Assembly: GCA_905178155.1 (NCBI GenBank)
Contig: CAJINV010000011.1
Coordinates: forward strand, 2,652,485-2,716,484
Reading direction: 5' to 3'
Origin: Amoebophrya sp. A120
Taxonomy: Eukaryota > Protista > Dinoflagellata
Length of the DNA stretch: 64,000 nucleotides
In this document: positions 177 through 64,000 of the stretch, piece by piece
Layout of the letters: each line of letters begins with the position of its first letter
Numbering within the stretch: position 1 is the stretch's first letter
Program-made: the position numbers and the translations under genes
Notes under the pieces: generated by a model
Told to the model about the DNA's origin: nothing
The model's database searches: none
What the model saw: only the letters and a program-made list of their open reading frames with translations

Positions 177-2807
177 CTAGAAGCCGCTTTTCTGTTTCAT
201 CTTTGCCTTCCCATTTGCGTCGCTGACGTTGGCCCCGAACCGCATGTTGGCCCAGGGAGTATCGTTCCTTACATTTTTGTAGTGGTATGGATTTTCCTCC
301 ACTTTCCGTCCGTGCACGAGGCGCGCGCGCGTGTCTTCTACGCTCGAGTTGGCCGTGAAGCTGTCGTCTGCTTTTATCAGCACGCAGCACACAAACCCGC
401 GGTTGTTTGTGTAGTCCAACGCGGCGCCGACCGAAACGACGTGGGTCTTCTCACTTTCCGTTTCGCCCCACGCCTCGCAGGCCCGCCAGTGCGGGATGGC
501 TTCCAGGGCAATTTGGCGCATCGCCACGTCGGTGCCCGTCGTGTTTGCCGCGCGACCGGGACCCGCAAGGGAAGAGGATGAACTCGAAGAGCCGCCCTGA
601 GAAAAAAGAGGACATTGAGATGATTTGGTTTTGAATGAGATCGCCCAAAGAAATGAAATCTACGTTCGCACAAGTTGAGGCTCGACGATTTTTGACATAT
701 CTTCCAGCTGCTACATGATACTCGTACATCGATGACATCGCAAGAAGAGCACCGGCTTTGTATGTAAGCATGAATTATATAATCATACCTGCGTCGACTG
801 CAACCCGAATGCGTGCGGTATCTCGCCCTCCCAGTGAAAGTGCGATATTTTGACGCTTGGCGGGAGTAACATGTGGTCTGCGAGCGACTGAAAAAAGTCT
901 TTTCTCTCCGCCAATAGCCTTTCGTTTTCCTTCGCCTCCTCCTCCGCACCGACCGGCTTGGTGTTGCGTTTTATGATCCTGTATCCACAGTAAATCTTCC
1001 GTACACGACGTACAAATCTTGTTCTGCATGACAAAAGTTGCCTTCAATCTTAGTCAGCATTACAAGTTTGACACTCGAAGGTAGCGAAATTTGTCATGCA
1101 TTTTGTACAGGTACGGGAAATCTGTATTGCATATCCTGCTGTCCTCGAACACCTGTTCCCGGTGCTTCATTCGGCAGCGCTGCGTCCAAAGGCGCGCTGC
1201 GTCCGCCGCGATGCTGTGGTGGGCGGAATTGAAGCTGGAGCCATGTTGATCCACAGCGAACGAATCTGATTTTGGTCCTGCACTTTCACTCCCATGATCC
1301 ATCTTTCTGCTAATCGTCAAAACGAGCGCTTCCACTACCGCGTCCTTGACCGCCGCCTCGAGATTTCTTTCCTTCAACGAGAGCGCTTCGACATTTGATG
1401 TCATTGCCCCGCTCACGTTGGGAGGTACAAACCAGGACTCTACGAGGGCGCCAGCGGTTCCGGACTGCTCGGATAACTGTTCCTTCTTTTGTGCAGCGAC
1501 TTGCTGCTGATAATTCCCCGCCCGGTTAAAATTTGCACTGTCGGTTAAAACCTTACCCGGGTTCGCGTACACGAACAGCAGATCCCGACAGGTGACCTCC
1601 AAGTCGTCCGGTATAAGCACTTTCGGATCCACTTGCAGCCATCTCCTGGTGCCCTTGGCTTTGGAGATTTCCAGGCAGTATTGGATGCAGGACCTGCCGA
1701 TCAAGGCTTGCAACTTCTGCTCCGGGCTGAAAACGTACAACCCCTGCTCCTGGGCTATTTTCCCCCGCAGCGCGTTGACCTTGTCGAGTATGCTGTTCGT
1801 CGCGGCGCTGCCGCCGGTGCTGGGGGAGGTGGGGACAACGTTGTTGGAGTCTGGCGCGTGAAAACCGCAAAGTTCCAGCATCTTTTCCCCACTGGGGAAT
1901 TGGAGCAGCTCGCGCTTCAACTTGTCGTTCTTCATCGGGATGGACGTGAGACTGCGTGTAGTATAGTTTTTTCGTTTGATAAAAACTTCAGAAAGTGTGT
2001 GCAGCTCAGTACCGCTGCCGATCCATGTCCATGAACAAGAACATTGAAAATAAATCCTGAAAGCGACATACGAGAAATAAGTTTCGGCACGAAAAAGCTA
2101 TGAAAAAAGTACCCTTTCAGCAGGCAGTTGTCGATGAGCACGGAGAGGCAGTGCAGACTCTGCAAACTCGTATCCTCCGTTATGAGTTGCAGCCCGATTT
2201 TTTTCAAAGCTTGACAATGCGCGGACACAAACGTGGCCAGATCGTCCATCACGTCGCTACTGGAGACAGAACCACCGAAACCCGTCTTCACCATGTCCGA
2301 TTTTGCGGCGAACCTGAGATGAGGGTAGCGGTCAGCATCAGCACGGTTTTCGTTTTTGGCATAGCCCATACAAGTGAAATGGGAATACCACAAGACCGCT
2401 GCTGTTCGTACACTACAGCTCCAGTTTTTATTTGCACTTGCAGCTTTTATTCAACCGTAGAAAAAATACGCTTGATTTCTTTTTTTCCGCAGGTCCTCGC
2501 TGTTCACCTTGGATTGCGGCAGGAGGTATTCCCGCAGCCCGGCGACCACCGGTTGGATCCAGCAATAGCCCATATACATGGCTAAAACCAGCAATAACGC
2601 CTGAAACACCGGCGACATTTCGACGCCTGGCATTGGGCCACTAGCTCGGCCGCTGTTGATGTCCATTCCCGGAGGGACCTGATCTGGTCCCAAATTTGTT
2701 CCTGCGTCGGCAGAAGCTGAAGCACCCTGTGGCGGCACGGGGCCAGCACCGGGAGAAGCGCCACCACCCATCATTGTGGGATCCGGACCAACGCCTGGGG
2801 TGCTCAT
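177..2807 (-). CDS. Multi-exon hypothetical protein with an N-terminal TM segment and a possible PUB-like domain
   Basis: ORFs 2451-2807, 1932-2393, 1060-1935, 783-1034 and 177-527 join through GT-AG introns (e.g. 597-788, frame checked) and the introner at 982-1133. IPMKNDKLKRELLQFPSGEKMLELCGF resembles the PUB motif, by eye. Confidence 0.6.
982..1133. mobile_element. Introner family A (non-canonical intron), reverse orientation relative to the other two copies
   Basis: TSD tcctg at 977-981 and 1134-1138; ends tatccacag...gtattgcata. Its reverse complement aligns with 53679-53831. Removal gives FEDSRIIKRN. Confidence 0.9.
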
Positions 2808-3430
2808 AGATGATTCTGATTGTAGTCTTTTGTATAATGTTGACTAAGCGTCACTTGCCAGAATGTGAAAAATGTGGACAACTAGAAAGGACGGGAATCT
2901 GTTGTAGCTGTACTAGGTGCTCATACCTGTTGGACTGTTAGAGCACAGAAAAAGCGAAAGGGGATGCGTAGTCGTAGTAGGACTAGGAGAGAAGTAAATA
3001 TAAGGTTTTTCATTCACTAGAATGTAGCTTTATCGAAAACGTAGTCGTAGTCGGAGAGGGGAGCCGCGGATGTAACCACCTCTAGAGGGGACATGGGGGG
3101 ATCTGAAAATGGGGATAACGAAGTCAGTGGTTAACTTGCTGAACAACGTGTGAGCAACATCACGACACCGAACCTCGGTCAGTGATAACTAGGCAGAACA
3201 CGACGCGCCACCTGTCTGGCATCAAATACAAATTCAAAATCGCCATGACTCTCAAGTAGTAATAGTGCGCGCTTTAGATTTTATCTTCATCGTCGCTCGT
3301 TCTCACTCGACGTCCAATGACAACTGATAGTACAAACATGTTGTACTTACAACATGTGTGAATAAGTGCATCTATTTTGGCTGGCAGTACGTAGTATGGA
3401 TGCACCTTCTCGAGTACTAGGGGAGCGTGG

Positions 3431-6400
3431 TCACCCACGACCGCCCCACAGTACCGTGACGTCTACGCCCTTGAAAGTTTCGGACACGGACTCGCCCCGG
3501 ATGATGGTCCCGATGGTTTCTTGGAACGCGAGCAGCGCCCCGAGAAAGAACCCAATCATGAAGACCAGGCAAAAGTTCGGGAAGCCGCTATTCCTTCGCA
3601 GCTTCACGGTGACGTCCGTCTGTCCGAGCACGCTGAACAGCAACAGTTCTCGCTGCTGGTCGCGCCGGGAAGTGAGTTCGACTTCCAGTCTGGAGGAGAG
3701 CACCGAAGAGGCGTCGTCGTCCTCGTGGTAGTACGAAGTGAAATCTTCTGATGTTTGCTTCGACGTTGTAAGGGACGTGTCCGAGAGAATCTCAGACGTC
3801 TGTGAGCCACCGCCGCCTGCGGAGGAGAGAAACTCTGAGTCGTGGTCCTCCGCATAGGCCGCGCCGTCGTCGCGGAACAACTCATTATCCTTGTCCTCTC
3901 TTCCAGATGATCCCGTCCGTAGTTTTCTGTGTTTTCGCTTTCTGGGAGAGGTGGCGGTATCAGAAAGTGATCCGCCCGAGGGGCTTCTGAACTTCACCCG
4001 CGGTCGCGCGCGGGTCGACGGACTTGGACTGCTGCCAGCGCTTAGCGACGCATCAGATTGCGATGGGGTTTGCTCGTCCTGCTGTTGTCTTTCTGGCATT
4101 TGTCGATCAGACGCGTCGATCCTGGCGGTACTCCCGGAATCCACTTGGAATTCCTCTGGGGAAAATTTCACGATAGCCTCATCTAGAAGTACTACAGGCT
4201 CGCCAAGGTCGTTTGTACTAGTGTCATTTGGAGGTGGTATTGCGCGTGCGGCGGACGGTCGTGCATAAGTACCATCAAGAACAACCGCACCACCAGGAAC
4301 CTCGCCACCTCGTGCCGTTCCCCCACTGGCACTGCTTCGACCATCCCCTGTGATCTTCCCGACCCGACTCGGAGTCGTGCCGCTGTGCTCTCTACTTTCC
4401 GGGTGGTCTTTTTGTAACGTCGTCACGCTCGACGTCGCAGCCTGGTCCGGCTCGTCGATAAGCCCGAGCTTCTGCAGCATCCGGACCGCGGACCGATGCA
4501 AAATCGTGTTGCGCCCGAACAAGGTAAACAGCACCTTGGTCGGCAGGTAGAACACCATGCCGATCGCCATGTTGCGCAGCGTCCACGCGGTCGTCGTGTA
4601 GTCCTCGAAAAATTTTGCGCTCTCCTGCAGCCAAAGCTTCGCCCGGTGGATCTTGTACTCTTCCGCGGGCTCGTCGAATTCTGCCAAGACGGCGTAGAGC
4701 TCCGCCTTCCGTTGCTCCACCATGCGGAGCTGCAGGCCCTGGAGAAAAAAACACGCAATGTTCTTCATCGCGAGCGGGGGCCAGAGAGGGGTGGGCGATT
4801 GCAGTGTGATCAGAAACAGGTACATCCGCAGCAAGCCAAACGGCAGGTCGACGAGAAAAAGCGAAATTTTCGCGGACCGCTCCCGCGCACACGTCACGTC
4901 TAGCTGCGTTCGCAGCAGGAAAGAGGTGTGCGCAATGCTGCCGGTGACCGCAGTGGTCGCGAGCGGGTGCTCGTGGGCGGACCGGGTCGAGGCGATCAGC
5001 CCCTCGCCCGCCTTGCTGAAGGTGCTGAAGCCGTGGCTGCGGTCACTGACGCTTTGGCGGTCGAGGTCAGCGTCCGTGGCCGTTGCTCGTCTTGTGGTTT
5101 CTTGTTGGAAATTTTCCGCCATCTGCTCGTATAGTTTTTTCACTTTGCTCTTCTTTTTCTTCTTATTTCTCCGGGACGTCGTAGTTGCGGGGGCTTGGTT
5201 ATCATTTTCGACGTTGTCATCTGTGGTCACCCTCACCTCATCCATGTTTACTATCGCAGAACTGGATGAACTGCCTCCACGATAGCTCGTCAACTGCTTG
5301 CCACTACCTTCTTCCCGCACAAGGCCGGCCATTTCTTGTCGCTCAAACAGCTCATCCAGCAGCGCCCGCTTTGGTCCCTCAACCTTCGAAGGAGTCCGCG
5401 GCGCCGCATTGTAGTTTCCTCTACTCGTGGAGGTTGTGGTGGTGGAGCGAGCTCCTGCTGCGCTAGATGTTGCTGTTGCTGTTCCCCTGGGGAGCGGGAG
5501 GTCAGATTCATCTGCTAGTACCGGATTTACATCTACATCTTCTGGAAGCTCTTGTTCCACAGTAACCACGACGTCCTGCGGGTCAACAACCACAGGATCC
5601 CGCTCCTCGACGTGCTCTTCATCCGCCCCACCTACAGTTCGGCTACTCGACCTACTTCCCATACTCGTCCGCAGCGTCGTCGCCCGCGAGATTTCCGTGA
5701 ATCGCGGATCGTCGACGGCAGAAGTTCCCGCAGTGCCGCTCGACGCCGAGAGTCGAGCGGAAGTCCGGCGGGGGTCTACAGGAACACTAGTAGTACCGGC
5801 GCCAGCTGCTGTGTTGCTGGAACGAATTCCTCTCGTCCCGCCCTGCTGCTCCGGCGTCACCTCGCCACTACCTACGTTGTCGTCTGCTGTGAACAATGTG
5901 GTCGTGTCGGGAGATGTTGTTGAAAACAACTCCATGTGCTGGTCCGGCTCCCTAAAGGAACTACTTCTCCGCAATTCTTCTTCCTCCTGCTCTGCGGCGA
6001 GGCGCTTTTCCGCGGCTCTCTGCAGCGCCTCCTTCCCGAGCACTGCTTCGTGCACCGCCTGCACCGTCTCCACGGGGAGCACACTCCATTGAAACTTCCA
6101 CTCCGCCCCCGGGAAGGACTGCGCGTGGGCGAGGAGAGAGAGAAAAATGAACAGCGGGGAGAGTCTTCGGAAGACGTTTAACGCCTCCCATATCGTGACA
6201 AAAAAGTGTTTCACTGTAAGGGTTTTGCCAGTTTTGCATCACAAGTTCGTATACGCATGACCGAGAAAACTTGTCATGCGAGGTTCCTAAGAGAAAACAA
6301 AGGTAAAAACCCGAAGTCTTGCACGTGTAGCAAGACAAATGCGTCTTTGTTCTATTCTATGCATCACAAGTTTACAGTGAAACAGTTTCTTCTTGCGATA

Positions 6401-7806
6401 TCCCAGTTCTCTAGGACAATGTCCACGTCGAGGAAGTCTTGCAAGCGATATGAAGTGCAAAAGAATCGTACGAAAGTCGTACAGTATTTGCAGTGGTCAA
6501 CACGTATGCCGCGTCCAACGCAACTTTGACTTTCTAGTTCTACCTGAGCATAGCATGACAAATTTTCTTCGCATTTTTGTTCTCAAGAAAATTTGTGATG
6601 CAAATTAAACTACGTACGATACGTTTGCAGAATGCGTAAGCGACTGTACTTCACCATGTTCACCACGTCAACGATGTCCAGCGCCACGTGCCACACCATA
6701 TCTTGGTGCATGATAATATCCGGCGTGGGCATCCCGTGAAAGTGCCCGAACAACGCTTTCTGGGCCCGGAACATCAACGCGATGTACACCACGGACACGA
6801 GGTACAGGCTGACGGAGAGGCTCGCGGGGGTGCGCAACCAGGCGTAGGCGTCCGCGGTGGTGCCAGCGATCGCATCCACGTGGGGGAGGACCTTCAGGTA
6901 CAAGACCACGAATTTCCCGGCCATGAGCCAGGAGTAGCTGATCCAGATGACCGCGCCCATCTTGGTATCCTGAGTAAAAACGTACCCACACCAGAGTCAG
7001 GATGGGGATTTTGCAACACAAACCTAAGAGCTTTGTGAGTCACGCATGACAAGTTGCGCGATGCAGTGTAGTGCAGGTTAGCACGTGCAGCCGCATCACA
7101 GATTCATCTGCTCATCCTGTAGTTCACAGCATCACAAATTCCAAAACACGACTGGAAATGGTTCTCATGGGGATGCGCGTTACAAGTCTTCCTGTCTTTG
7201 CAAATCTGCATTACAACTCTGGCGTGGGTACGTTTTTACTCAGGATACTTGGCCGCCTTCTCCGCGGAGTAGTTGTGGAGCATGTAGAGCTATCCTGTGC
7301 AAAAGTATCGTACTCGTACTAATTGCAAATATGCATGACAAATCTTCTTCCTAAGGTAAAACAGCATTACAAGTTCTACTTCTCTTCTTGCCAAAATTTG
7401 TAATGCAATCTATACTAGTACGATACTTTTGCAATGCATAAGAGCAGCTGGCAACCTTCGACGAGAAAGAGCGCAATCACCCCGTCCTCCGTGATGTAGT
7501 AGTATCCTGTGCAAAAGCATCATACTCGGTCGTTTAAATGCAAGTCTTGCATTACAAATCTTGTTCCCAAGGCAAATCTGCATTACAAATTTTATATCTC
7601 ATGCTGAGGAAAGTTGTAATGCATTTATACGAGTACGATACTTTTGCACTGCATAAGTAGTAGAAAAAGACGAAATTCAGCACCCACGATTGAAACCCGA
7701 TCGCGATCACGGAGACCAAATAGCTCAGGTTCATGAAATTCAGCAGTCGGTCACACACGGTTTGGTGCACCTTGCGCTTGTAATTGAACGCGCGGTTGCC
7801 CGACAT
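3431..7806 (-). CDS. Multi-pass membrane protein, TMEM121/CECR6 (or TMEM26)-like, with long low-complexity insertions; 6 exons, about 1121 aa
   Basis: Removing five introners (each plus one TSD) gives a continuous frame: exons 7656-7806, 7441-7497, 7248-7285, 6639-6960, 6401-6443 and 3431-6185. Motifs ALDIVDVV and FLVDLPFGLLRMYLF...MKN. Confidence 0.7.
6191..6400. mobile_element. Introner, single copy in window
   Basis: TSD tccca; TIR tatcg...tgtttcactgtaa / ttacagtgaaaca...cgata. Frame restored (LENWEALN). Confidence 0.9.
6449..6638. mobile_element. Introner family D (diverged)
   Basis: TSD agcga; ends tatgaagtgcaaaagaatcgtacg...cgtacgatacgtttgcagaatgcgta. Frame restored (KYSRLQDF). Confidence 0.85.
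6966..7247. mobile_element. Introner family B
   Basis: TSD cttgg; near-perfect TIR of about 32 bp, tatcctgagtaaaaacgtacccac(a/g)ccagagt. Full-length similarity to 31837-32115. Confidence 0.95.
7291..7440. mobile_element. Introner family D
   Basis: TSD agagc; TIR tatcctgtgcaaaagtatcgtact / agtacgatacttttgcaatgcata. Confidence 0.95.
7503..7655. mobile_element. Introner family D
   Basis: TSD agtag. Its reverse complement closely matches 47585-47729. Confidence 0.95.
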
Positions 7807-11027: not shown

Positions 11028-12515
<1,488 letters not shown>

Positions 12516-22527: not shown

Positions 22528-23589
22528 TCAGAATTGCGGCGACCGGAACTCGATTTCCAGCTCGTGCGCGTCTTTTAGTTCCAGATGGTGAAAGGAACAC
22601 GCGTCCCCTATCCGTTCCTTCAGTTCCTCGATGATTTGCATCTGCAGGTCCGCGTAGCGTCGGTGCGTAAGTTCGATGAACGTGTATTTTTTCAGGACGT
22701 CTTTGGCGTCGAGGTCGAACTCTTTTTCCAAAAACCCGCGGCCAAAATCTCGCCCGAACGTTTGCCATATCTCTGGCGCCCAGTGCAGCTTGATTTTCAG
22801 CGCGCATCGCATGTGGATCTGAGGTATGATGTTGGAAGCACGTAGGTGGGCTATCTCGAGCAACATCAAACCTTGGTGCACAAAAAAACGCTTGTTGCAG
22901 CAGAAGAAATCTATCGTTACCTCGATATCCTTCCCATCTACCGTCTTGTAGGTGCGTATAAAGCGCTTCAGAACAGGACTTAGCCGCATGGACACGTAAC
23001 TGTCGCGGAGGGGGTTTGTTATCAGCAGCATCCCGCCATCAAAAACGTGGGGCTGGGCCTGATAAAAAATTTTGTTTGTTCATCTTGATCCATCTATAAT
23101 GTTCTAGTTCAGTTCGAAAAATCAAACACCGGCGGGACCAAGTTCACGAGCAGATAGAGAAACTATAATTGGAAGGATTGTATGTACAAGTACCTTCCCG
23201 TCATTGATGAGGAGTCCGACACAGCCTGGCGATATTCTCCTGACAGAGAACCAGCAGGCCGCGGCCACACTGACCGTGGAAGCGAACATGAGAAAGTTGA
23301 CGCGGTTTCGTTTTATCGCGTAGATTATGCATTGCAAAAGTATCGCACTCGTAGTAATCGCATTTATGCATTATTTCCTTCTCAAGCTAAATCCGCATTA
23401 GAAATTCCATTTCTCATGCTGAGGAAATTTGTAATGCAGTTTATACTAGTTCAGTTCTAGTACGATGTTCTTTTTGCATTACATATAGATGGGGCGTTGG
23501 AAGGTCCGGGCGAGCAGGTACCTGCTGATCTTCGTACCGAGGACAAGTTTCTGTCCTCGGGAAAGCGTGGCGGGAACCGGGGCTGACAT
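22528..23589 (-). CDS. Divergent prohibitin-like (SPFH/band 7) protein
   Basis: N-terminal TM segment, then KTVDGKDIE and PEIWQTFGRDFGRGFL...ELKERI, matching the prohibitin pattern. One introner and two probable GT-AG introns. Confidence 0.65.
23326..23485. mobile_element. Introner family D
   Basis: TSD tagat; starts tatgcattgcaaaagtatcgcactcgta. Removal gives QRPIYAIKR. Confidence 0.9.
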
Positions 23590-27300: not shown

Positions 27301-30300
27301 GGGGTTTCTGCCGTTTCGCGACGGTGGAAAGCCAGTCGAGCGGGAAGCGGTGATTCGACGCTTTCTTCTCGACCAGGTTCTTGACCAGCACCCTGACGGA
27401 CTCCCGCTCCGTTAGCTTCTCTTCTTCGTCCGGGTAAAACGTCGCGAGAAGATTCATCAGGTCCCCCCGGCCGGGGAGCGTCTTCACCCGGACCGGAGAC
27501 ACCGGCCCTGGCGTGATCGGCGGGGGTCGATTGGATCCGGGGGACGGAGGTTGGCCTTGCAGAAACGCGGCCGCGAGGGAAGCATCCATCAGTGGAGCAG
27601 CAGGAGAGAAAGCTTGCTGCGGTTGTTCGCCGAATGCGGGCATCGTGGCGCCCATCCGCGACGCCATCGCTGGTGACATCGAAGCGCCGTAGGCACCAGG
27701 CGCCATGGACGCGGCCATTCCGCCACCCATCGGCGCCATGGACGCCATTCCCATCGGCCCCATAGTCCCCATATTCATCGCTCCTGGCGCCGTCGATGCC
27801 ATTCCTGCTCCGGCCCCCGCCATTGACGCAGCAGCTGCCATCGATTGCATCCCCGCACCAACAGCGGGTTGCTCCGTCCGCTCGATGCCCCAGGCGGAGG
27901 GCAATTTTCGCCAAACTACGAACTCCTGCTGCCTCGCGATCGGCGAAAAGCCGCCCGTTCGGCGGAAGAAGAAGTGCACGCCGGAGTTCCCGCTGTAGGC
28001 CGCGTACTTTTCCAGCCGCTCGGGGTGTTTCACGATGCTGTCCGACCCGGCGACCAGCACCTGATCGCCCTTCTGCAGCCCCATTCGGTGGCCCCAGGAG
28101 CCGGGGGGCGGGTCCTTAGACAACACGTTCGTCGATCCGTCGGAGTGGAGTCCAGAACTAGTATCGCCCGTTTCCGACGGTTTGTAAAACAACTGCAGGT
28201 ACTCGTGGACGTACTTCGCTCGGTAGAAGATGAAGGAGCAGGGTTTATCAAATGTAAAAGTGTCTGGGTCTGGAAGAATGCAAGACTTGTCACGCATATT
28301 TCTCATGACCCATGACGCCTGTAATGCATGACCTAGCATCGCAGATTTTTAGAGGGCTTCCTGATGCACCTTCCGCATGAGAAATGCCCTGTCCGTGTAG
28401 CACAAATTGTACCTCTCTTGCTGGTCATGCAATACAAATTTTTTTAGAGTCCAAAAACAGCATGACAAGCATGCATTCTTCCAGACCCAGACATTTTTAC
28501 ATTTGATAGGGTTCTTTTTTCTTCAATTTCCCCGCGGACGCCAGCAGCACCGCCCCCTCGATACTGGTCCCCTGCATGGTGGCGACGGACGTAACCCTGG
28601 TTCCCGCAAGCAAAACGATCTGGTCGCCGACAACAATGCCCGCTTTCGTCGCTCTGGAAGGGGTCTCGCCGTCGGCAGCTTTGGGGATGACGGTTTTCAC
28701 CACCACTTTTGGGAACGCGGACCAGTCCAGGATGAGCCCGAACAGCTGCTCAAACTTCTCCCTCGATCGTTTCTCCGACTTCATGATCTCGTTGTCCAAG
28801 CTGCTCTGAATCCAGCCTATGAAACCGTACTCCCGCAGATTCTTCGTCGACACCGTTTCCGCAAAGGTCGCGTACATGTAGGGCGCGTTTGGATCTGAAG
28901 GGGTAGCAGCTGCTGCGATAGATCCTGAAGCTGCGGAACCTGCTGCAACTGATCCTAGAGCAGCGCTGGCCAACATTGCGGGCGACTTCGAGGAATCTTG
29001 TGCAGGCGCAGCAGCCATGGACTTTGTCGCGGCCGGCGCCGCACCCCCGGCGTTCGCCGGGTGCGTCGTCGCTTTTCCCTGTATCCCCCATGCGGACGGG
29101 AGTTTGCGCTGCAGGTTGGGTTCGTGAGTGCCGTTTGCCTTATGAAATCCACCGGATCTGCGCAAGAAAAAATCGACGGACTTCTCCCCATTTGCGTAAT
29201 TTGCCAGCCGCTCCGGATGTCTCACAATGGAATCCGACCCGGCGACCAGAATCTGGTCGCCGATTTCCAACCCGACCAGAGCCGCCCACGTACCCGGGTC
29301 CGGCGAAGCAGAGACCGTGTTCTTCTCCCTATCGGATTTGATCCCGACGCCCATACTGCCGTGCGTGCTTTTCGAAAACCGCAACTGGATGTATTCCCCA
29401 ACATACTTCTTCCGGTAGAAAATGAAGCTGCACTGCTCCCCCTTCTTAATCTTCGACGCAGAGAGTTCCAGCACCGCTCCCTCCGCGCTCGACGCTTTCA
29501 CTTGCGCGACGTTCGTCACCCTGCCCCCGGCCGCGATTACCAGCTGGTCCCCCTCCACGATTCCGGATTTCGCCGCCCGGCTCGGCGTCTCGCCGTCGGC
29601 GGCCTTGGGGTGCACCTGCGTGACAAAAACCTTCGGAAATTGCGACCAGTCGAAGGTGAGCCCAAACAGCTTCTCCAGTTTCTCCTTGCTGCGTCTTTCC
29701 GATTTCATGATACCTTCGTCCAACGCGGAACTCTGGATCCACCCGATGAAACCGTATTCGCGCAGCGATTTTGTACTCACCGTCTCGGCGAAAGTTCCGT
29801 ACATGAACGGCAGTGCCTCCGCGCTCGAGGGCGGCGGAGAGGTGGAGCCGCCCCCAGCGGTCGATCTGTTCGCGCCAGCTCCTGGGCTGGCTGCGCTGGC
29901 AGCTGCACTGCCAAGAACGGCGGATGCAGCAGTCGTGCTGGCCATTGCAACGCCCCAGGCGGACGGCAGTTTCCGACCCAGGTCCGGCTGGTGGCTGGTC
30001 GTTGCCGAGTCAAAGCCGCCCGAGCGGCGGATGAAGAAGTCGCAGGAACTGTTCCCACTACAATACCCCGCGAGCCTCTCCGGGTGCCGGACAATGCTGT
30101 CGTTCCCCGCGATCAAGACCATGTCCCCAGCTTTCAGGCCCACTTTCGCCGCCCACGAACCCGGCGGTGGATCGGCCGACAGAGCGTTTTTCTCCCCGTC
30201 CGACTCGATCCCGACCGGCAGACCGGAGGAGCCGGAGTAGTGTAATTGGACGTATTCCCCCACGTATTTCTTTCGGTAGAAGATGAAACTGCACTTCTCC

Positions 30301-31526: not shown

Positions 31527-34500
31527 CTACTTTTTCTTCCCTTCCTTTGCCTGCCCGGATTTCGTGTAGAAGTGCATCAGCGTTTGCTCGCACGTCAATG
31601 CCGGTTCGTCGTCATCGTCAACATCCTTTTTCCTCTCCTTATCGAAAACCCTCGGGTCCAGAACGGTCGTCAGGCTCGGGCGGAAGAAGAACGGACTGGA
31701 ATACCGTTCCGCCGTGGACAAGTTCACGACCCGGTGGATGGTCGCTTTTATCTTGTGCCGGGTCCACTGCGCCAACATGGAACCAAAGTTCACCACAAAC
31801 GCGTGCTTGATTGGCGGCACGTGAATCCAGGCGTGTTATCCTACGCAAAAACGTGCCCACACCATAGTCAAGATGGGGAATCTGCAACACAAGTCTCCAA
31901 GTTTTGGGAGTTCTGCATGATAAGTTTCCATCTGCAGTGTAGTGCTGGTTAGCAAGGAAAGCCGCATGAGAAAGCCATTCACTTATCCTGTTTACAGCAT
32001 TACAAATTCCAAAACACGACTGGAAATGCCTCTCAAGGGGATGCGCATTACAAATGTTCCTGTCATTGTGCATTTGCATGACAACTCTGGGGTGGGAACG
32101 TTTTTACAAATGATACGTGTCGCTTCGCGTTCAGCACCTGCAGGCCGCCGACCATGTCCTGCTATCAAAAGGAAAAATCCCCCCTCCCCATATCGAAATG
32201 GAAATCTGTGACGCGGGATTTGGGTACACAAATCGGCTTTGCCTTGCAGTGAAAGACTGCAACCAGATGCAAAGCCGCAGCAGGGGCGCTTTGGTGTAGG
32301 CGCGTGGCAAGACAGGCGCATCCTCCGTAGGCCGCCCAGCATTACAAATTGCCTTCAGAACGCGGCGGAGTTTTTGGATTCGCCTTCTTGCAACACAGAG
32401 ACGATTTGGCGTCTCAAATCAGCATCACAAATTTTAAGAAGTGTCCCTTTTCGATATGGGGAGGGGGGATTCTTCCTTACGATACCTGCGCGAGCATGGT
32501 CAGAAACCCGTAGTCCACGTGCGCGCCGATGGAGACTTCGTTGTGGTAATCCTGAAGTGGCGGGTAGTGCAGAATCCGGTGGTGACAAACGGCGTTGTCG
32601 CAACTCCGCCGGAGAACTTGGTCGTCGTAGTGTGCGTCATCTTCAACTTCTTGTTCAACCTCATGATCCCCTTCTGCGAGAACTTTCTGGGAATCCTCAA
32701 ATCTCGGAGGCGGTGTGGAGCGACTTTTTGAAGATGATGTTGACCCATCCGCCCTATTGCTGTTGTTCTGCAGCCCGCCCGTACTGCGGGTATGCCTGTC
32801 GGCGTGGATTACCGACGTTTTCACCTTCAAGTCACACGCGGTTCCGAGAAGTTCCATTAACTTCAGAGAGAGATCTAGCACCTGCTCTTGGTACCGCCGC
32901 ATGACAGGAGTGAAGCCCGGCACCTCCTTGTCCGGCATGTCCGACTCCTCCAGCCAGCGGCCGCTGCTCGCCGCTTTCAGATTCGCGGCGCTGCGGGACC
33001 CGGCCGTGTTGCCATTCATGTCGAATATGCATTGCAGAAGTATCATATTAGTATGAATTGCATCACAAATTTTCTCAAAAGGAAAAATGGAATTTGTAAT
33101 GCTGATTCACCTACTAGAAAGGCATATTTGTCATGCTTAACAGACTGCGCAGCTCAAGCCCGGGGGGGGTCCGGGGTCGAATATTTTGTCATGCATATTT
33201 GCAATTAGTACGACCGAGTACGATACTTTTGCAATGCATATCGAAGCCTTCCTTGCAATCCTGCCTCGCGACGGGGGGAAGGACCTGCTCCTGCGGGTTC
33301 ACGTCCTTCACTGGGTTCGCGTTGGGTTTATCTTGACTGGCGGTAGTCGTGTCCTCGTCATTTGTTCCAGTGGTACCGGCGTAAACGACCCTATCACTAG
33401 TCGCGCCCACAACTTCCTTTGACGTCTCGGTCGGTATCCTCAGCGCCCCCTCGCCCTCGTCGTACACTTCGTCCAGGTTTTCCATCCCCTTGCCGAAGTA
33501 CCCCGTCATCGCCTCGCTTTGGTTCATCAGGTATTTTTCCTTCGTTTTCTGGGACAAATCGAAAAACACTTGCGCGTTCTTGAACACGGCGTCCATCAGC
33601 TCCGGTTCGACGGAGTGGTTCACGAGGTAGAAAAACCCGATTTCCTTTGCCGCTTTCCCCAACAAGGGTAAGAGCTTCTCTCTCGGTAAGCTGTAGTCGA
33701 TGATCGGCACGGCCTCGAAGTCGAAGGGGTTGACGATCGCCGCTTTTAAATCTTCCGGCAAGTCGTTCGGTAGCACGGGCTGGATGTTCTTCAAATGCGA
33801 CGCTTTAATGGTCCCGCCCTCGATCGCGATGGTGGACTTGTGGATTCGATCCACTAGCACGCGCTTATCTTTCACAGCATCCGGGTTAATCTCAACCAGC
33901 AGATCCGGCTTCCGTCTCAGCCCCTCGATTTTGTCGACGGAGGGAGCGAAGTAGATTCTGTCTGCTTGTTGTTGGTGTTGTCCAGGCTTCATCTGCCCAG
34001 GCGCACGCGGCGGCGCGGCGTATCCGGAGCGGGAGAGAACGTTCGACGCGTTGTGGTCGGAATCCGGGGACTGCGTGCCGCTAAATTGGTCTGCTTTGGG
34101 GGAGCCGATTCGACCTCGCGAGTCGGGGTGAAAGGCAAGGTTGTGCGGCGTTGACATCGCTTTCTGTAGGGGCTGAAGGATGAAGGAGTCTTTCTTCATG
34201 TTATCTTGTACACTACTTGTTTGGGCTGTCGTGCGTGTGCTTTCTTCTCCTGTTGCACGGGAAGGCCCTCCTGCTGCTGGGAAGACTTGCTGATGATTGT
34301 TGCCTGCCCTATGAATATTCGCAGGCTCCTCCCGTGAAGTCGTAGGCGACAACGCTGCAAAGGAGGGATCTCCGGCGCTACTGGATGGCGCGGGCGATCG
34401 CGCGCCACCGGCTTTGAGCATACCGGCGAGTTGCTCCCGGTTCGCCCCGGCAAGTGCATTCGCGTTGGCCTGGTCAAACGCGGTCAAGTTGTTCCCAACC

Positions 34501-47400: not shown

Positions 47401-49107
47401 CAAAAGTTCAGCTAACATCACATCAAAGAACATCAGCACTACGTAAACGTAGATGATCATATGCAAAAACAAACTGTACTTATGTCCGGGTGCACGGGGC
47501 TGGTCAGTGTTCTTGTCGTCACGGTGCTTGCGAGCGAGCTGCCCATGGGACTGGAGGCGGAGATCGTGTTCGTCGTCCCGACAATATGCATTGCAAAAAT
47601 TACGCACTCGTATAAATGCATTACAAATTCCCTCAGCATGAGAGATAAAATTTGTGATGCGGATTTACCTTAAGAACAAGGTTTGTAATGCATGACTGCA
47701 ATACGAGTACGATACTTTTGCACAGGATAGACAAGACCTCCTCCGGCGCTGTTCATCTGGTCCGGCGACAGAGTCGGTTTTTGCCCGGTTCCGTCCTGTA
47801 TGAATTGCAAATGTATCGCATTCGTATAAATGCATTACACATTTCCTCAGCATGAATGTGATGCGGATTTAGCTTCAGAAAAAAAATTGTAATGCATGAT
47901 TGCCATTACTACGAGCACGATACTTTTGCAGAGCATATCCTGTGCCATCACGTACTTCAAATGTGCGTCCGGCTTCACATCCAGCTCTATTCTCCCCGCT
48001 CTCTTGCCGATTCCCTTCACCTTCGCCTCCATCCACTGTTTGTGCGTGTTGCTCCAATACCACACCTTGTGCCCGACTTGGAAGTCTACCTGTTTGTTCC
48101 TCGGTGCAGCAGCAGCTCCTACAACCCCGTTCGCGGCGACGAGATTCGTGCTGTTTGTTGTATTTGCAGTCTGAATCACCGGCTGCGAAATGGAACTACT
48201 TATAATTGTTCCACCAAAAGGTGCTGTGGACGAACTGGACACTACAGTCGTGCCCACCTTTACCCCGGCTGCAGCGGCCAACGTGCTCGTGATCAGCGGT
48301 GCTCCTCTTGCGCTGGTTGGCGACGGGCTGCTGTGCTTCGCCGTAGTCGGGTTGGAAGAGGAGGCTTCGCTCGGAGCAGGCCCGCCGACGGATTCCGGGG
48401 AGAGCGGCTGCGAACTTTGCCCGTTCACAGTAGCGGGAGACTCATGAGGGGCGGCAGTGACGGTGGAACCTGATGGGTTGCAGACTCTATATAGTTTGGC
48501 TGGCTTTTGCCAAAGCGACCGTCGGAAAAGGCGACTACATGAAAGTAACGTGCATGCAAAAATCATCTTCAAGAAACATCAGAGTGATTATATGCACTAA
48601 AACTACCAGAGTTGCGAATTCCGCCACTGCTGGCAGACGCTACTACCCTTGTCTTGACAGAAGACGCTGCGCTAGTGGTCGAGGGTGGGAGGTGGAATGT
48701 CACCAAGTCCGGTTTGGCTTTTGGCTTGATATCGAGATCGTAGGAGACCTCATAATTTTATAGTCTACGTTCTGGTATGAAAAAGAAAATTTGAATTTTC
48801 AACGTGGAAATAAAGCACCCTAAACAGAGTTTTTTTTTCGTTGGTGGTTATCGTCACGAAGAGCACATGATCCTGCAAATGCAAGCAACAATACCACATT
48901 GCCCTGATCGTCGTAGTTGGTATTTTCCAGCTTTGCCTGCATGGACTTATTGTGCGTTTTACTGAAGTAAAGCACGGTCGGGAAGTGATTATTATTCTTC
49001 CCGCCCGCGGCTGCTCCAGCACTACTACCACCTCCCAGCTGCCCAAGCGACGCAGACTGCGACGCAGCCAACTGTCGAGCGGTTACGTTACCGCTTTGCA
49101 CCATCAT
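44479..49107 (-). CDS. Multi-exon protein: Tudor/SH3-like N-terminal domain, long S/T/A-rich region, C-terminal atypical (Bud32/RIO/APH-like) kinase domain
   Basis: GGLNKGIY, IIKVV, HGDVQPSNV (across a GT-AG intron), LIDMGG and AFKEGY; FQVGHKVWYWSNTHKQWMEAKV. Two introners. 5' end uncertain. Confidence 0.65.
47585..47729. mobile_element. Introner family D
   Basis: TSD gacaa; opposite orientation to 7503-7655. Confidence 0.95.
47799..47937. mobile_element. Introner family D
   Basis: TSD tcctg; internal deletion relative to the neighbouring copy. Confidence 0.92.
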
Positions 49108-50353: not shown

Positions 50354-52530
50354 CTACGCAACCGGAATCATCGCGGGCACCTCATCCTCGATCCCCAGCG
50401 ACAACTCCTGCTCGTACTGTAAGATCGCCAAGTCCAGCTTCTCGTGCCAGGTCTGCCACTGGAGTCTCGATGTTTCCCGCTCGTCGTGCAACTTTTCCAG
50501 AGCTTTCTCCACCTCGTTGACTTCGACGTTCTCCCTGACTTGCGCATTCTCCTTGTCTAATTCCTGCTGCGCTTCCTGGATCCGGTCCTCCAAAACCCGC
50601 ATTTCCGCGGCGACCTGCTCCCGCTCCCGTTGCTTCTGAAACGCGACCTCCTCGATCTTCGCGGACAAGGTGACGATTTTGTCCCGCGCTTCGCGTTCCT
50701 CCCGTTCGGATGTTTGGTATTCCTGGCGATTTTCCTCGAGCTCCTGCTGAAGGGAGTCGGATTCCAGCTCCTGCTTGTGCGACTTCTCAACCGTCTGCTG
50801 GTGCTCCCGGACCCGGTCGAGAAACAGGTTGCAACGGGCGGTACCAGTTTCCGCCTGATAAAACGATTGCGTTTTTACTTTCGAGCCTGTTTCATCTGCA
50901 TTTTATCATGCAAACTTGAAGCAAAATGAAATCGCGTCACAGTACGCTGACGCTACATCCGCATCAACCACGACTACTATGCATTCACACCAGCAGGCGA
51001 CGACACAAAAAATACACTTACACACCAATGGCACCATAGTACGGACTCACCTTCGCTGTTTCCTCCCCCAGCTTGTCGCAACTTTGCTGCAGGATCTTGA
51101 TCCGCTCCGTTTTGCGCTGACTGGCTTCCCGGAGCTTCTTCACGTCGGAAACCAGTTGAGCCGGGTCCATATCCGAAATCACCCCCTTTTTCATCGCCGT
51201 AATCGCGTCCTCCAGCATCCGAATTTCCCCCGCGGCGTTCTCCATCCGCTCGTTAGTAGAAGAGGTGTCGCGCTTGGCTGTGTTCGTGTGAAGCAGGTTT
51301 CGCTTTGAATCATCGCTACGTCAACTACGTGCATGGCGGTACATTTACCAATCTCTGCATTTTCCTCCAGTTCTCAACTACCTGAAGCATCAACTCTTAT
51401 GCTACATGCAAGAAGCTCTCCCTCGAGAAAGTGCTCACGAACGAACGAACTACGAGAAGACAAAAAGTATACCATCATCCATGGCCGCTTCGATCTGGAA
51501 GATGTTCAGCCGTTCCATCTCCTGCTTGATGGTCCGTTCCTCGCTCAAATACCGCTCCACGGCGGCCTTCTCCTGCGCCAGCTCCGCTTCCTGCTGGTCC
51601 ACGTTCTCTATCCTCTGCAAAACTATCGCACTCGTATAAATGCGAGTCTAGCATTACAGATCTGCTTTCTTACCTGAAGCTGCATGGCAAATTTCGTTTT
51701 TCTTCCAGGAAAAATTTGTCATGCCATTTGTACGAGCACGATGTTTTTGCAATGCATATTCTCCTTCAAACTGCGCATCGCCTCGGATGTTGTAGCAATC
51801 CGCAGGTCCAGCTCCTCCACTACACGTTGTTGCTCATGCTCGTTCTGGGACTCATCCTCCCGAAACCGGCAGAAATTGATCAGCGCGGACAGGTTCCGCC
51901 GCAGACGCTTGCCCTCGGGCTGATAAGTTTTTTCAGGGGGATATTTTCGCACTCTGTAGTAAGCTCCTGTCGACTCAACCTAGAACTACACAACTGGCTG
52001 TCTAAGCTGCATCAAATTCATGATCTATCACGCATGAAGACAACAAGATCTGTATATACCTTGACGATATCATTCAACGAAAAGTCCCCAATGCCGGCGA
52101 TGTTTGCCAGATGCTGGATAGTCCGAAAAACGCACAAGAACCGCGTCGCATCCTCGTACAAAGTCGGGAAATTCGTTACGTTCCCACCGCCAACGCCACT
52201 CCCTGTACTGTTGTCGTTCGTGAGCAATTCGTGCCATGGCATGCGCCGAATATCGGAGGTGGAGGTTAAGAATTCCCAGAATGCGATGTAAATGTCGAGG
52301 ATGCCGGCTGGGGTTTGGTGGAAATTCGGCGCGGAGGAACTACTTGCTCCGGCGGTAGTACCGACAGTGACCCCATTGATTTGGTTCTCGTAATACTGCT
52401 CCGTGACAGACACCGTGACGTAGTTCTGCGGCTTTTGCAACACATCGACGGTTACGTCGGGGAATTTGTCGCTGTTCTTCAACACCTGAACAATCTCGTC
52501 ACAGGTCAACAGGGGGAAGATGTACCCCAT
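50354..52530 (-). CDS. NUF2: Kinetochore protein Nuf2
   Basis: FPLLTCDEIV, GIGDFSLNDIVK-PEGKRLRRNLSALINFCRFREDE, followed by a coiled coil. One introner and several GT-AG introns. Confidence 0.88.
51609..51758. mobile_element. Introner family D
   Basis: TSD ttctc; ends tatcctctgcaaaactatcgcactcgta...tacgagcacgatgtttttgcaatgcata. Confidence 0.93.
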
Positions 52531-53569: not shown

Positions 53570-56500
53570 TTAGGGTGCGGATCCCGTGACGCGAGACGTC
53601 ACATCCTCATACTGGTGGTCCTTGGCGTCCGCTCCCTTCTCGCGGGCTTCCATCTCCATCGTGTCCTTCCCGTCCAAGTATGCAATACAAATTTCCCTTA
53701 CATGTACAAAATGCATCACAAATTTCGCTAACTTTCAGTGTCCAACTTGTCATGCTGGCTAAGATTGGAGCCAAGTTTTGTCATACAGAGACAGCATCTG
53801 TACGTGTACGGGAATAGCTTTACTGTGGATACGAAGACCAAATCCTGGTTCGACAAGACGTGCTTCACTTCGTCCAACGTCGAAATCTCCTCCGCGATGG
53901 CCGCGAACCGCGCCTGGGACCCCAGCATCCAGTAGTCGCAGCCGGGCTGGAGCTTGTTGAAAGATGCTAATAATCCTGTAGTCCCGTCCGTGCCGTATAA
54001 TTTCTCCCGCTCGGAGGCGTAGTCGGTCTCTGCGGAGGTCTTCTTGGCTTCTTCCTCCGCCTCTTTGGTAACAGAGTCATTCCGCTCCTTTTCCTTCCCA
54101 CCGATGATGGACTCCGGGGTTTCAATCGTGGTGACCATCATGGACTCCTCCATCGGGGAGGCGTTACCGATGGTCTTCACCATCTCGTCCTGCTCGGCTT
54201 GTAAATCGGTGATCTGCGTCGTCCGGTCAGTCTTCTCGTTGTCCATTTGCGAGACAATCCCGTCCAGCATGGTGATCACCGGCGCAAGGGGGTTGGAGGT
54301 CTTCTTGGTCAAGTCGCCCTTGCTGCCCTCGTTGAACCGGCTGGTCTTCTCCGGCTTGTACTTGCGAAGCTCCAGAATGGCCTTGCGGACTTCACCCAGA
54401 GCGGTGGTCAAATCGTCCTTGATGGCTTCGAGGCTGTAGATACGGTAACAGACGATGACGAAGATCGAAAAGTACAAAGCTTCGATTGTACTACACATGA
54501 TCTGAACATTGCGTAGTCGAGCCATCAGGTCGCTCTCGTTACGATTTACGAATTTTACTAGGCTTAAAATGCAGAGTGGATTTTCAACAAAATTTCTAAA
54601 TTTGCAATTCGACTAAAACTGGTGACGTAAATGTAAACAAAAATATACTCCTTCTTGCTTTCCTCGAAAATTTCGGTTTTCTTTCTCTTTTCCTCCATCT
54701 TGTCGGCGATTTCCTCGGTCAGCTTTATGAGACTGCACAACTCCCCCGTCCCCTCATTTCAATGGGATAAGCAGCAACACAAGTGCTGGCATAAATGCAG
54801 CTTTTGCATGAAGAATTCGCGACCGATTCTAGCCCTGGGTCGGCTTGCGAAATCTGTCATGCAAGATGTGCCAAAGAGAAAAGGGCGGATTTGGTATTTT
54901 GCATGACAAATCATGAGGGGAAGGGGGAGTTGTGCACTGTCATAAGCTTTTTTTGCTTCTCATTCTCCATCTCAATGATCTCGGTGGAGGCTCGGATTTG
55001 CGCGTCTTGCCCGTCCATCTGTTCGGCAGCCTGTTTGATTGTTTGTGATGCGTAGCCGCTACGCTAAAAATTTAGCCTGTTCAATACAATTATGTTTTTG
55101 TCATGCAAAACCAACTAACACGAGCACTACCTGCAATGCACCAAACCACTACTAATACCGTCTTAGCGTCTTCGATCAGCTTCTTCGAGTCGACTCTGCA
55201 GTGCTCCACGGAGGTTTCGATGGACTTCTTTTCGTCCTTCAACTCAGACACCTGGTCGGAGATCGCGGCCATCAAGACTTGAATAGCCGTTTCGCGTTCC
55301 CGGGCGAGTTGCAGCTCCTTCATGGAGCGGACCTTCTCCGTTGTGATAGAGGCCTTCTGCAGGAAGAAAGCCGCCTCGTACTCCTTGTCGTCCTCGTTCT
55401 TCTGGAATAAATCCCGGTTGTCGTCACTGTGGAGTTATCAAATGCAAAACAGCATTGTGCTCGTACTAATTGCAGTACAGCATGACAAAACTCCCTACCT
55501 GCCTGTTTCTGCATGACAAGTGTCATTTCTCTTGGAAAAAGTTTGTATATATGCAATTACTACTAACACGATGCTTTTGCAATGCGTAGGAGGATTTCAA
55601 CCGCTTTGTCGATCGCGTCCTCCTGCGCCATGGAGTCAGCAGAGAAGGTTTCGTACTCGGTGTCCTGCTTCGTCTTGTTCTCGTCCATGACCTTGTCTTC
55701 CGCATTATGCAATACAAATTTTGCGCACATGTACAAACAGCATCACAAATTGGATCAACTTGGAAGAAGCATTTTGTCATGCTGAAGAGGTTTGAAGGAA
55801 AGTTTTGTCATGCGGAAGCCGCATTTGTACGTGTACGGAAAATTGCCTGTGGATACGCATCCGCGTCGGCGATTTCGCCCTCCAGTGTAGTCTTCAAGTC
55901 GGTCAATTCCTGCGTCCGTCTCGCCTTCGCGGCGGCCTCCCCCTCACCCGCTTGCTGCTGCTCCTGGAGACCGGAAAGGGCTTCCTTTAATTCTTTGATG
56001 AGCGCTTCTTGTGCCGCGACGTCCTTCTCGTGCTGCGTTGTTGTGTCGATCTCCTCCTTTTTGTACTCGTTTTTCAGGGTTTGGATCAACTCCACGATGG
56101 AACCAACTTGGCTGCTGTACGCTTCCGGAGCCTGCTTCTCGAATTTCAGCATGGCGATCTGCTGCGCGGGAAGCAGCTTGGCCTTGGCGAGGAGGGACTT
56201 CAGGGTCTTCTGCTGGACAAGAAGGGCTGATTTTATATTTATTTTTGATTGAGGTTTTATAAATTTTTCATAATTAAAGCGATCATCACCATACCGCCGT
56301 GGGTAATGTTTTGCACGATTGCATACGGCACCTTCAAAATTTTAAACCATCACACCGTCCCGGAAAATATTATCCACGATGCGTCTGCGGGCGTACAAAA
56401 AACGCAAGAACTAACGAGAAAATTATCCAACAGTACTCTGGCCTTGGATCTTCTTCTCCGCATCTGCTAAGGCGGCAATCCCCGCCTTCAAATCTGCCAT

Positions 56501-62146: not shown

Positions 62147-64000
62147 CTACGATCGAGCACCAGGCGGGTTTTTTTTCGACTTCGGCTGCATGTAACTTCT
62201 CGAGGGTCGCTGCTGAAACAGAACCGCGTCGTCTTGCTCGCTTTCGGGTAGTTGTGCTGGCGCGGCCGCAGTAGACATCAGCAATTCGTCATCATGCTGC
62301 ATGAACGAAAGTAACTCCGCCATGTTGGCGTTTTCCCGTTCTTCTTGCGCTCGTGCCTGTTCGAACTGTCTTTCGTTGAAATTCACAAGCACATTGACGT
62401 CCGTCGGGATTTCGCCGATGTCGGGCTTTTCTCCCGGAGCACCCGCAGCTGCGGAGGACAAAGAAATGGGGCCGCGTTCCTGGTTGGTTGTGGGTCTAGT
62501 TCTTGGCGAAGCTCCTGGTGATGGTGCTGCCCCTGCCCCTCCGGCAACTACAACATTATCGTAGTTGTTGATGGAGTTGAAATCGAAAATCGTGTTTGTC
62601 GGGCGTTTTCGTGGCACTTTGGACAACAGCTCGTAAAATTCGTCCAGTTTTTCCGCGCTGGACCATGTGTGGTCAGTTCTCCGGAGAATGCGCACCTTCC
62701 CGCTCTTCGGATTCTCTTTCGCCTCGATCAGCATGGCGGTGAAGTCAAAAATCTCCCTCGTCGGTCGCTTTCTAGGGCGAGTAGACATGGTTGCTCCGGC
62801 GCCACCTTGTTCGTTGTCATGGTGCGCCGCATATGAACTGCAAAAGTATCGTACTCATATAAATGCATTTCTCAGCATGAGAAATAAAATTTGTAAATGC
62901 TGACTTGCCTTTAATGCAAGACCTGCATTTATACGAGTACGATACTTTTGCACAGCATACCACACTAGCGTCGTGTGTCGTCGTCGTCTTCGACCCTGTC
63001 GGCGTCCGCGTAATGTGCAACGTTTCGGAAAAAACACTTCTCGGGCTGCTCTCACCTACACCTGTGCCGAAGGTAGAGGATCCGAAATTTTCACTCATCA
63101 GCTCCCCTTCTGGGGCAACTCCTGGCCGCTTTCGACTTTGCTTGTGCTGTCCCGCGGATGAAGATATAATCGCCAAATTCGGGCCCAGACCCTCCCGCTC
63201 AATCCGCTGTAAGATTGACAGCCTCTCCTGCTCCCGCATTTTGCGGAAATCGAGCAGCTTCGCTTTTCTCGGTTTACTCTGCTGCGCCAGTAACAGCCTG
63301 TGCGTCTCGGCGGCTCTCTTCCGGTTCTCCAAAATCGTCGCATCCGGATCGTCGCGAACGTAATTCGGCCATTCGCTTGCTGTCGGAGGGAACTTCAGCG
63401 GGTATTGGTATTTCGTCCTACTCAAACTCGTGTCCCAGAGACCGGGGACGATGGAAACCACTCCGTCACTGCTGTCGATGTCTTCAACGAGGGAAGAAAA
63501 TGTGTAGAAATCTGGACCTAGAGAAACCGCTTTCTGCAAAACTTTCGAAATCAGAGTTTGCAACTGCTCTTTGACAGTACTGTTCTTGCCAGCAGTTCCT
63601 TTGCTGGTATTTCCCTTCACCACGCCCCTGCTTGAGATGTTCTTAGCGGTGGCGCCGATTTCTAGTTCACTGGGTACGTCGGTGTCTGGGTGTTCCGTAC
63701 GCGGGGTGTTCGTCCGTGGCGTGTTCGTCCGTGGGGTATCCACGTAGGCTCGCGGCGTGTGATGCGGCAGCTCGGTGTTCTCACTGGAGGATGAATCGAG
63801 ATTGGTTGTCACGTCAAGGACACGGTGGTCCTGCTCAAGAATATCTGCGCTGTGCTCGCCCTCTGTTTGCGGTTCTCCACCGCCTCTTGGGGTCCAGTGC
63901 GGCGTGTCGGTTTCGTGGGGCTCCTCCGCATCCGCGCGCGGTGTCCAGTGCGGCGTTCCAGCTTGAGTAATTGTGTCCTCAGCTCCAGTTGCTGATGAAG
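62147..64000 (-). CDS. Hypothetical protein, 5'-partial, with TPR/TPHWTPR peptide repeats
   Basis: The frame is open from the window edge, and ORF 62817-63812 joins 62147-62788 in frame after introner removal. 3' end uncertain. Confidence 0.6.
62832..62959. mobile_element. Introner family D (short variant)
   Basis: TSD ccgca/ccaca (one mismatch); TIR tatg...tgcaaaagtatcgtactc. Confidence 0.92.

Follow-up and report, generated by a model that had tools for sequence, protein, structure and literature searches.

The closest described relatives of the sequences considered here are the introners of Amoebophrya sp. A120, a genome with roughly 30,000 repeated non-canonical introns (PMC7789003). According to the available part of that paper, they carry an inverted repeat (IR) of the form TAT + 7 nt + AAA, short direct repeats and non-canonical junctions; U1 small nuclear RNA (snRNA) was undetected in A25 or A120, and a matching transposase was undetected in A120. 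In the portion available of a second paper (PMC12130899), A120 families of ~107, 149, 209, 234, 260, 278 and 305-322 bp, lengths that match the families described below, are classed as terminal inverted repeat (TIR) DNA elements, superfamily unknown, and its family 38 has a 5-bp target-site duplication (TSD), TA/TA termini and integrase-like homology. We analysed a window of 64,000 nt of A120 (contig CAJINV010000011.1, the whole stretch at its full length) that holds 20 elements with the same IR, short direct repeats and non-canonical junctions, and found that they have an internal box, GCAWNACAA, whose copies keep to one helical phase in the family consensuses. We interpret the elements as non-autonomous TIR transposons that are removed as non-canonical introns, and the boxes as binding sites of one duplex-DNA protein aiding transposition; we give this interpretation a probability of roughly 55%.

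The window has 58 strict boxes (35 forward, 23 reverse), whereas the 200 local dinucleotide shuffles that served as the null averaged 5.7 and reached 14 at most. Most of them (49) fall within the 20 elements, which total ~3.7 kb, and at least one is present in 19 of these. Among the direct spacings of up to 150 bp, 12 of 27 are exactly 31 bp; among 20 convergent spans, seven are 43 bp, one is 44 bp and another seven are 74 bp, i.e. 31 + 43. An earlier note on this DNA had described such boxes as a code of direct pairs 31-32 bp apart and convergent pairs spanning 43-44 bp, common to unrelated families. Every box coordinate and spacing that it listed was found again, with four of the 20 direct-pair members departing from the strict consensus, three by one mismatch (7177 GCGTTACAA, 32307 GCAAGACAG and 32390 GCAACACAG) and one by two (54806 GCATGAAGA).

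A larger sample was obtained by scanning metagenome contigs for three boxes, which gave 138 loci (696 kb with overlaps) from one assembly (JACKZZ01), so that the elements stand in two assemblies; those of the loci are up to 94% identical to those of the window. A motif-blind finder based on TAY..RTA ends, TIR pairing and a 5-bp duplication, with family hidden Markov models added for the window, identified 549 elements; shuffled DNA (226 kb) yielded four false calls. The 121 elements that fit the search pattern were excluded wherever spacing, substitution or indel rate was counted copy by copy, and were included in the family consensuses and in the analyses of orientation, covariation, long-gap and terminus phase, and indel size. 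A strict box occurs in 415 of the 428 elements not selected by motif. With a finder that allowed TAY..RTA only and required 5 bp, 535 of the 549 elements end in TAT..ATA, and the TSD is exact in 419 and has one mismatch in 130; none of the 419 also fits 6 bp. AAA stands at positions 10-12 in most family consensuses, the exceptions being families 4, 5, 6 and 10. The elements are MITEs (miniature transposable elements with inverted repeats) in that they are short, non-coding and present in many copies, have a TIR and a TSD, and occupy sites found both filled and empty. Element-free counterparts are known at 90-95% identity, L084 (element E480) against L048:12776-12895 at 95% and L135 (element E528) against L020:10891-11007 at 90%, and represent recent gain or precise loss.

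Fourteen families of 109-321 bp were built from 502 elements. Boxes are present in all 14 families, in both orientations in 13 of them, the boxes of the family 2 consensus being all on one strand. Among the outcomes that the earlier note had named as speaking against it was descent without excess conservation of the box; in each of the 14 families, box columns are better conserved than the rest of the interior. Once boxes and ends are masked, families 2, 4, 5, 6, 8, 10 and 12 have interior sequence in common, families 3, 7 and 13 have another common module, and families 0, 1, 9 and 11 stand alone. By sequence, the families form about six homology groups, and the claim that they are unrelated is partly wrong. 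The sharing of interiors indicates that one core travels with different TIRs. TIR positions 14-28, after the AAA run, hold family-specific short tandem repeats in all families, with a period of 6 bp in most and of 15-16 bp in families 5, 6 and 10, and are candidate transposase sites. A second module, similar to GTAGTGCTGTTT, occurs in families 2, 4, 5, 6, 10 and 12 (in the window at 6966-7247, 31837-32115 and 54726-54944); carried by differing TIRs, it could be a second protein site.

For the spacing grammar each family consensus was counted once. Direct pairs at 31-33 bp occur 23 times (null mean 2.7, maximum 9) and are present in 13 of the 14 consensuses, in agreement with the direct spacing proposed before. 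The convergent rule was too broad: 42-44 bp spans occur five times (null 1.6, maximum 7), and the span of 43-44 bp, real in the window, is restricted to five of the 14 families. It is one rung of a ladder of 10, 21, 31-33, 40-44, 49-55 and 62-65 bp. Divergent pairs with a 7-nt gap occur eight times (null 1.3). When periods between 8 and 20 bp were scanned, the best was 10.5 bp for direct and likewise for divergent spacings, and it remained so when the direct spacings were limited to the 31 consecutive ones not falling in 30-34 bp. Reverse boxes fit this phase at an offset of 6-7, which aligns the GC steps of all boxes. Of 24 gaps longer than 34 bp, 21 are within 2.5 bp of whole turns (expected fraction 0.52), and the long-gap cosine of the consensuses is 0.53 at a period of 10.5 and -0.04 at 11. 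Measured at 28 ends, the first box is in phase with the terminus too (R 0.65, p 0.0002). Redrawing the long gaps while leaving the short units intact gives a null under which p is about 0.001, and under four box definitions the phase p is at most 0.01. When each homology group is represented by one family, 21 of 21 choices retain the overall phase. Curvature by phased A-tracts was considered and set aside: for the AAATT runs that follow forward and reverse boxes it would require an offset close to 0, and there the fit is about zero.

Duplex DNA is the most likely form in which the box code is read, because elements lie in both orientations in exons, the convergent pair lacks covariation and the period is 10.5 rather than 11. 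Exonic orientation counts are 10:13 for family 2, 68:85 for family 0 and 43:38 for family 1, and genes in the sample are co-oriented 186:10. Across 151 copies, the two boxes of the convergent pair match at their variable position at a frequency of 0.563, and permutation gives 0.582. Weak covariation is seen in one inner pair (0.387 vs 0.303, p 0.0045), but a direct pair, which is unable to base-pair, co-varies as much (0.63 vs 0.52), and relatedness therefore accounts for the inner pair. The suggestion that a protein reads one face of the duplex thus gained support, both from these results and from the period of 10.4-10.5 bp, which is found even without the 31-33 bp pairs.

The RNA evidence for removal covers window positions 1-11000 and comes from the contigs of X3, a run whose type was guessed. 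All six elements in this interval are skipped in the contigs, by element length + 5, which corresponds to one TSD. Four GT-AG introns are likewise skipped, three on the same contig as the element at 982, and the contigs accordingly have a spliced pattern. None of the six element junctions can be read as GT-AG, and neither AG nor GT is enriched in the TSDs, which offer AG at 0.53 vs 0.49 and GT at 0.45 vs 0.45 in the flanking exon taken as background (288 TSDs). In-silico removal of the element at 11564..11684 with one TSD restores the frame of the alpha-tubulin gene, which is 91-93% identical to those of named dinoflagellates. Predicted RNA stems are strong in all six elements folded (z -3.6 to -7.8). 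A skip of reverse transcription across the TIR stem is disfavoured as the cause of these contigs, because third codon positions show a 2.5-fold excess of TSD mismatches (13.8% vs 5.6%) and reading frames need the element to be removed. The copy at 6449 is removed although its first box is broken and its remaining span is 49. Raw RNA runs X9, X10 and X11 gave 3, 0 and 467 matching reads, those of X11 deriving mostly from other element copies, and the three runs therefore provide no test. Hundreds of X11 reads at 6966-7008 and 7329-7440 join related element ends to other flanks, and abundant transcripts in this sample retain some element copies.

From this we infer a binding protein, a DNA loop and a division of labour. 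One sequence-specific protein would bind the phased boxes on duplex DNA and bend or bridge the element of 110-320 bp so that its ends meet for transposition. An integrase-like transposase, which the TA..TA ends bring to mind as in IS3EU/GingerRoot, would read the family-specific TIR repeats at 14-28, and the common box would be the target of a second module that evolves more slowly, be it an accessory protein of the TnpA kind or an architectural protein of the host. The signals for removal from RNA would lie chiefly in the TIR stem and the TAT and AAA ends, which are identical in either orientation. If the box serves transposition, families with different TIRs use one architectural code.

The decay of resident copies points in the same direction. 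Private indels strike the interior of 31-bp pairs and the remaining inter-box gaps equally often (1.66 and 1.62 per 100 nt). They are mostly of 3-7 nt (916, vs 373 of 1 nt), whereas indels common to at least five copies are mostly of 1 nt (21, vs 7 of 3-7 nt). This pattern, together with a phase of 0.53 in consensuses and 0.21 in single copies, suggests that the phase is kept by multiplying lineages and lost in resident copies, and the fact that phase-breaking insertions are common in residents and rarely amplified points to transposition rather than splicing. The removal of the 6449 copy, together with the unguarded spacing of resident copies, argues against a need for the spacing in removal. 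As TSDs age, boxes gain substitutions like spacers (+1.0 vs +0.95 points), and the best-kept parts of resident copies are the ends, with private substitution of 1.6% in TAT and 2.2% in AAA. The private indels, in the loci L001-L138 and the window, are dominated by +3 (419) and +6 (146) insertions, and an XY-n-XY pattern is seen in 226 of the 419 three-base insertions vs 71 at random places. In exons these insertions would be frame-neutral; they could reflect repair or a footprint left by another element.

Several results weigh against boxes that serve transposition through one bound protein. No transposase or integrase family (Pfam) was found in 26 open reading frames (ORFs) of the window or 31 of the long elements, nor, among the 610 ORFs of the loci, in the 124 longest that remained. 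Orientation is skewed in family 3 (14:3) and family 9 (5:1). When one family is taken per group, no more than 13 of 21 choices bring the long-range phase to p<0.05; the 29 elements outside families are without phase (cosine -0.25); the long gaps of the window itself peak at 10.0-10.2; and the phase is weak in single copies, at 0.21 against the 0.53 of the consensuses. Shared indels of a whole turn (9-12 nt) are not enriched (p 0.63). A 521-bp foldback-like TAT..ATA element with a 5-bp TSD (L052:8103-8623) has no GCAWNACAA box; its seven exact TGTTATCGA matches are internal repeats of its own TIR motif, and its good ends imply that such ends can move without the box (n=1). Finally, boxes have a private substitution of 3.8% (their G and C, 2.2%), TIR repeats one of 5.6% and spacers one of 7.3%, and the TSD clock runs at 5.6% for codon positions 1-2 and at 13.8% for the third. 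The boxes are therefore below a clock of at least 5.6% and at 0.68 of the TIR-repeat rate (confidence interval, CI, 0.59-0.78), and their cores look partly guarded after insertion.

Because box cores decay more slowly than the insertion clock, a role in removal by the host has to be weighed. A host or domesticated duplex-DNA binder might sit on resident boxes and recruit the RNA-removal machinery, as a splicing mark on DNA that may serve transposition too. We consider this possible but clearly less probable than boxes that aid movement. Besides the slow decay relative to both the clock and the TIR repeats, with an age excess 2.5 points lower (CI 0.8-4.2), it would explain why the box is common to TIR types of differing sequence, why long exonic copies with cargo retain boxes near at least one end, and why the sole box-less element, that of L052, lies just inside a GT-AG intron, a place from which it need not be removed (n=1). 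It also agrees with junctions that need no GT or AG, with the failure to detect U1 snRNA, and with 153 strict boxes outside recognised elements in 486 kb of loci, compared with 37 expected. Against it stand the unguarded spacing of resident copies, the off-phase 6449 copy that is still removed, and the TIR stem, which alone explains removal in both orientations. The box/spacer ratio is 0.52 in coding copies (n 312) and 0.53 in apparently non-coding ones (n 36, class uncertain), a comparison that is weak because TAT also behaves alike in the two classes. Four same-site pairs were left aside in judging selection after insertion, their members having been chosen by box pattern. In a more specific form, a host protein bound to the phased boxes would loop or mark the element during transcription and pass it to a U1-independent removal machine; this we hold to be slightly more doubtful still. 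If it were true, DNA and not RNA would carry the identity of the intron, any TIR family could become a harmless intron by acquiring the box module, and the tolerance of tens of thousands of exonic insertions would be accounted for. In either form, a box that serves removal would be a splicing signal read on DNA.

Two side observations concern these box-bearing sequences. The boxes outside elements, some of which belong to further families and some to heavily decayed copies, include seven pairs at 31-32 bp. Long copies with cargo between family TIRs were seen at L056:6184-6998, L016:4568-5189, L013:3862-4492, L039:1561-2313, L003:2129-2941 and L066:40-1423; five of the six were scored exonic, and the sixth had too little flank to score. 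The L056 copy (815 bp) contains a zinc-knuckle-like fragment and is near the published family 38 (808-810 bp) in length, and none of the long copies gave a convincing Pfam match.

That the boxes are extra sites of the transposase itself, one enzyme with relaxed TIR reading moving all families, seems unlikely to us. Mu and Tn7 have multi-site ends, and some family-0 TIRs hold a perfect box 3 nt from the end and 31 bp before the next (53682/53713, 55709/55740). The phasing of boxes to element ends and the TAT..ATA and 5-bp TSD common to all families would suit such an enzyme as well. However, most TIR types have no box there and have short repeats of their own, and the box-less element repeats its own TIR motif internally.

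Simple descent, with boxes and spacing as relics of a tandem-repeat ancestor or of chromatin wrapping and no present reader, is very improbable. Ten of the 14 families belong to two homology groups, and a tandemly copied 31-bp unit would yield multiples of 10.4; but boxes exceed spacers in conservation in every family, the 31-33 bp pair is found in all six groups that have no detectable interior homology with one another, gaps of 40-65 bp keep the phase, and inter-box spacers are not repeats of one another. Least probable of all are boxes acting as RNA signals or as arms of RNA stems for splicing, since the pairing of convergent boxes in some predicted folds and the weak covariation of one inner pair are offset by the equal covariation of a non-pairing direct pair, its absence in the main convergent pair, the occurrence of the one-way family 2 in both orientations and a period of 10.5, not 11.

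We retain the interpretation of the boxes as sites of a duplex-DNA protein that aids transposition. A cognate autonomous element was not found in the window or in the about 0.6 Mb of loci, box-triple patterns and TIR patterns gave no match in viral contigs or in prokaryote genomes, and Rfam gave none. A motif of all 14 families with a defined phase is a DNA bait for the missing protein, with a half-turn shift as a built-in control, and the boxes give each copy a score that can be set against intron retention.

Table 1. TIR elements of the window, with duplications, boxes and removal from X3 contigs.
Position	Element	TSD	Boxes	Removal and context
982..1133	TAT..ATA element, family 0	TCCTG	1026, 1057 (+), 1099 (-)	skipped with one TSD, 157 nt, X3 contig
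6191..6400	family 3	TCCCA	6236, 6330, 6361 (+), 6279 (-)	skipped, 215 nt
6449..6638	old family-0 element	AGCGA	6553 (+) and 6601 (-), spanning 49; first box broken	skipped, 195 nt
6966..7247	family 2	CTTGG	7013, 7044, 7129, 7208; 7177 (1 mismatch)	skipped, 287 nt
7291..7440	family 0	AGAGC	7333, 7364 (+), 7406 (-)	skipped, 155 nt; RNA stem z -6.3
7503..7655	family 0	AGTAG	7549, 7580 (+), 7622 (-)	skipped, 158 nt
11564..11684	family 9	AGAGA	11644	inside alpha-tubulin gene (minus strand)
23326..23485	family 0	TAGAT	23437 (-)	
28246..28508	family 1	GGGTT	28429, 28460	94% identical copy in L056
31837..32115	family 2	CGTGT	31884, 31997, 32045, 32076	
32163..32484	family 8	CCTGC	32339, 32422; 32307, 32390 (1 mismatch)	
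33026..33240	family-0 ends, enlarged interior	TCGAA	33060 (+), 33102, 33136, 33194 (-)	
47585..47729	family 0 reversed	GACAA	47618 (+), 47660, 47691 (-)	
47799..47937	family 0 reversed	TCCTG	47895 (-)	
51609..51758	family 0	TTCTC	51724 (-)	
53679..53831	family 0 reversed	one mismatch	terminal box 53682, 53713 (+), 53755 (-)	
54726..54944	family 4	AGCTT	54774, 54901; 54806 (2 mismatches)	
55436..55588	family 0	one mismatch	55480, 55511	
55706..55855	family 0 reversed	CGCAT	terminal box 55709, 55740 (+), 55782, 55813 (-)	
62832..62959	short family-0 element	one mismatch	no strict box	

Two further places in the window deserve mention. At 55040-55160, a family-0 TIR and first-box relic lie within an apparent GT..AG intron on the minus strand, which reads as an introner turned into, or inserted in, a canonical intron. 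At 42400-44050 there is a GC-rich (0.65) island, unlike the surrounding DNA, with an open frame of 426 codons that has no Pfam match.

Among known systems, the IS3EU/GingerRoot transposons (PMC10045372) resemble the elements here in their TA..TA termini and belong to an integrase-related DDE group, as the homology of published family 38 would suggest. Their TSD is usually 6 bp, however, compared with 5 bp here, and the available text mentions no internal box array; for the elements here no transposase was found. The CACTA/En-Spm elements (PMC2613891) likewise repeat a short motif in both orientations inside their TIRs, and, as far as that paper was available, these subterminal repeats are needed in cis for transposition and are bound in En/Spm by TnpA, which is not the catalytic transposase. 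In CACTA/En-Spm the TIR is conserved and the motif is family-specific, whereas here the TIRs differ and the motif is common. CACTA termini and a 3-bp TSD also contrast with TAT..ATA and 5 bp, and the boxes here fill the whole element in phase.

The internal eliminated sequences (IESs) of Paramecium are, like the elements here, transposon-derived exonic insertions removed precisely with one copy of a boundary repeat, and in the part of the source available (PMC3464196) a ~10-bp period in their lengths is interpreted as DNA looping. IESs are cut from DNA in the somatic nucleus and their period lies in length; here the genome keeps the element and the period lies in motif spacing. The non-conventional introns of euglenids and the non-canonical introns of Fritillaria are MITE-like as well, with TIR stems and borders other than GT-AG, and the accessible text of PMC11282704 mentions no common phased internal motif in them. 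In the A120 introner papers themselves (PMC7789003 and PMC12130899, as available, including 41 of 58 table rows), no internal motif or helical phasing is described, and Farhat et al. (PMC7789003) treat the families as sharing the IR start only, whereas here an internal box is common to them. We found no published description of the motif, its letters included, or of the phase in the sources available, among them PMC11453091, PMC4455052, 10.64898/2026.08.24.746577 and 10.1101/2020.10.14.339549; supplementary figures (Farhat Fig. S19, S25), subscription journals and theses could hold one. The elements were already known, and the helically phased internal code common to them appears to be new.

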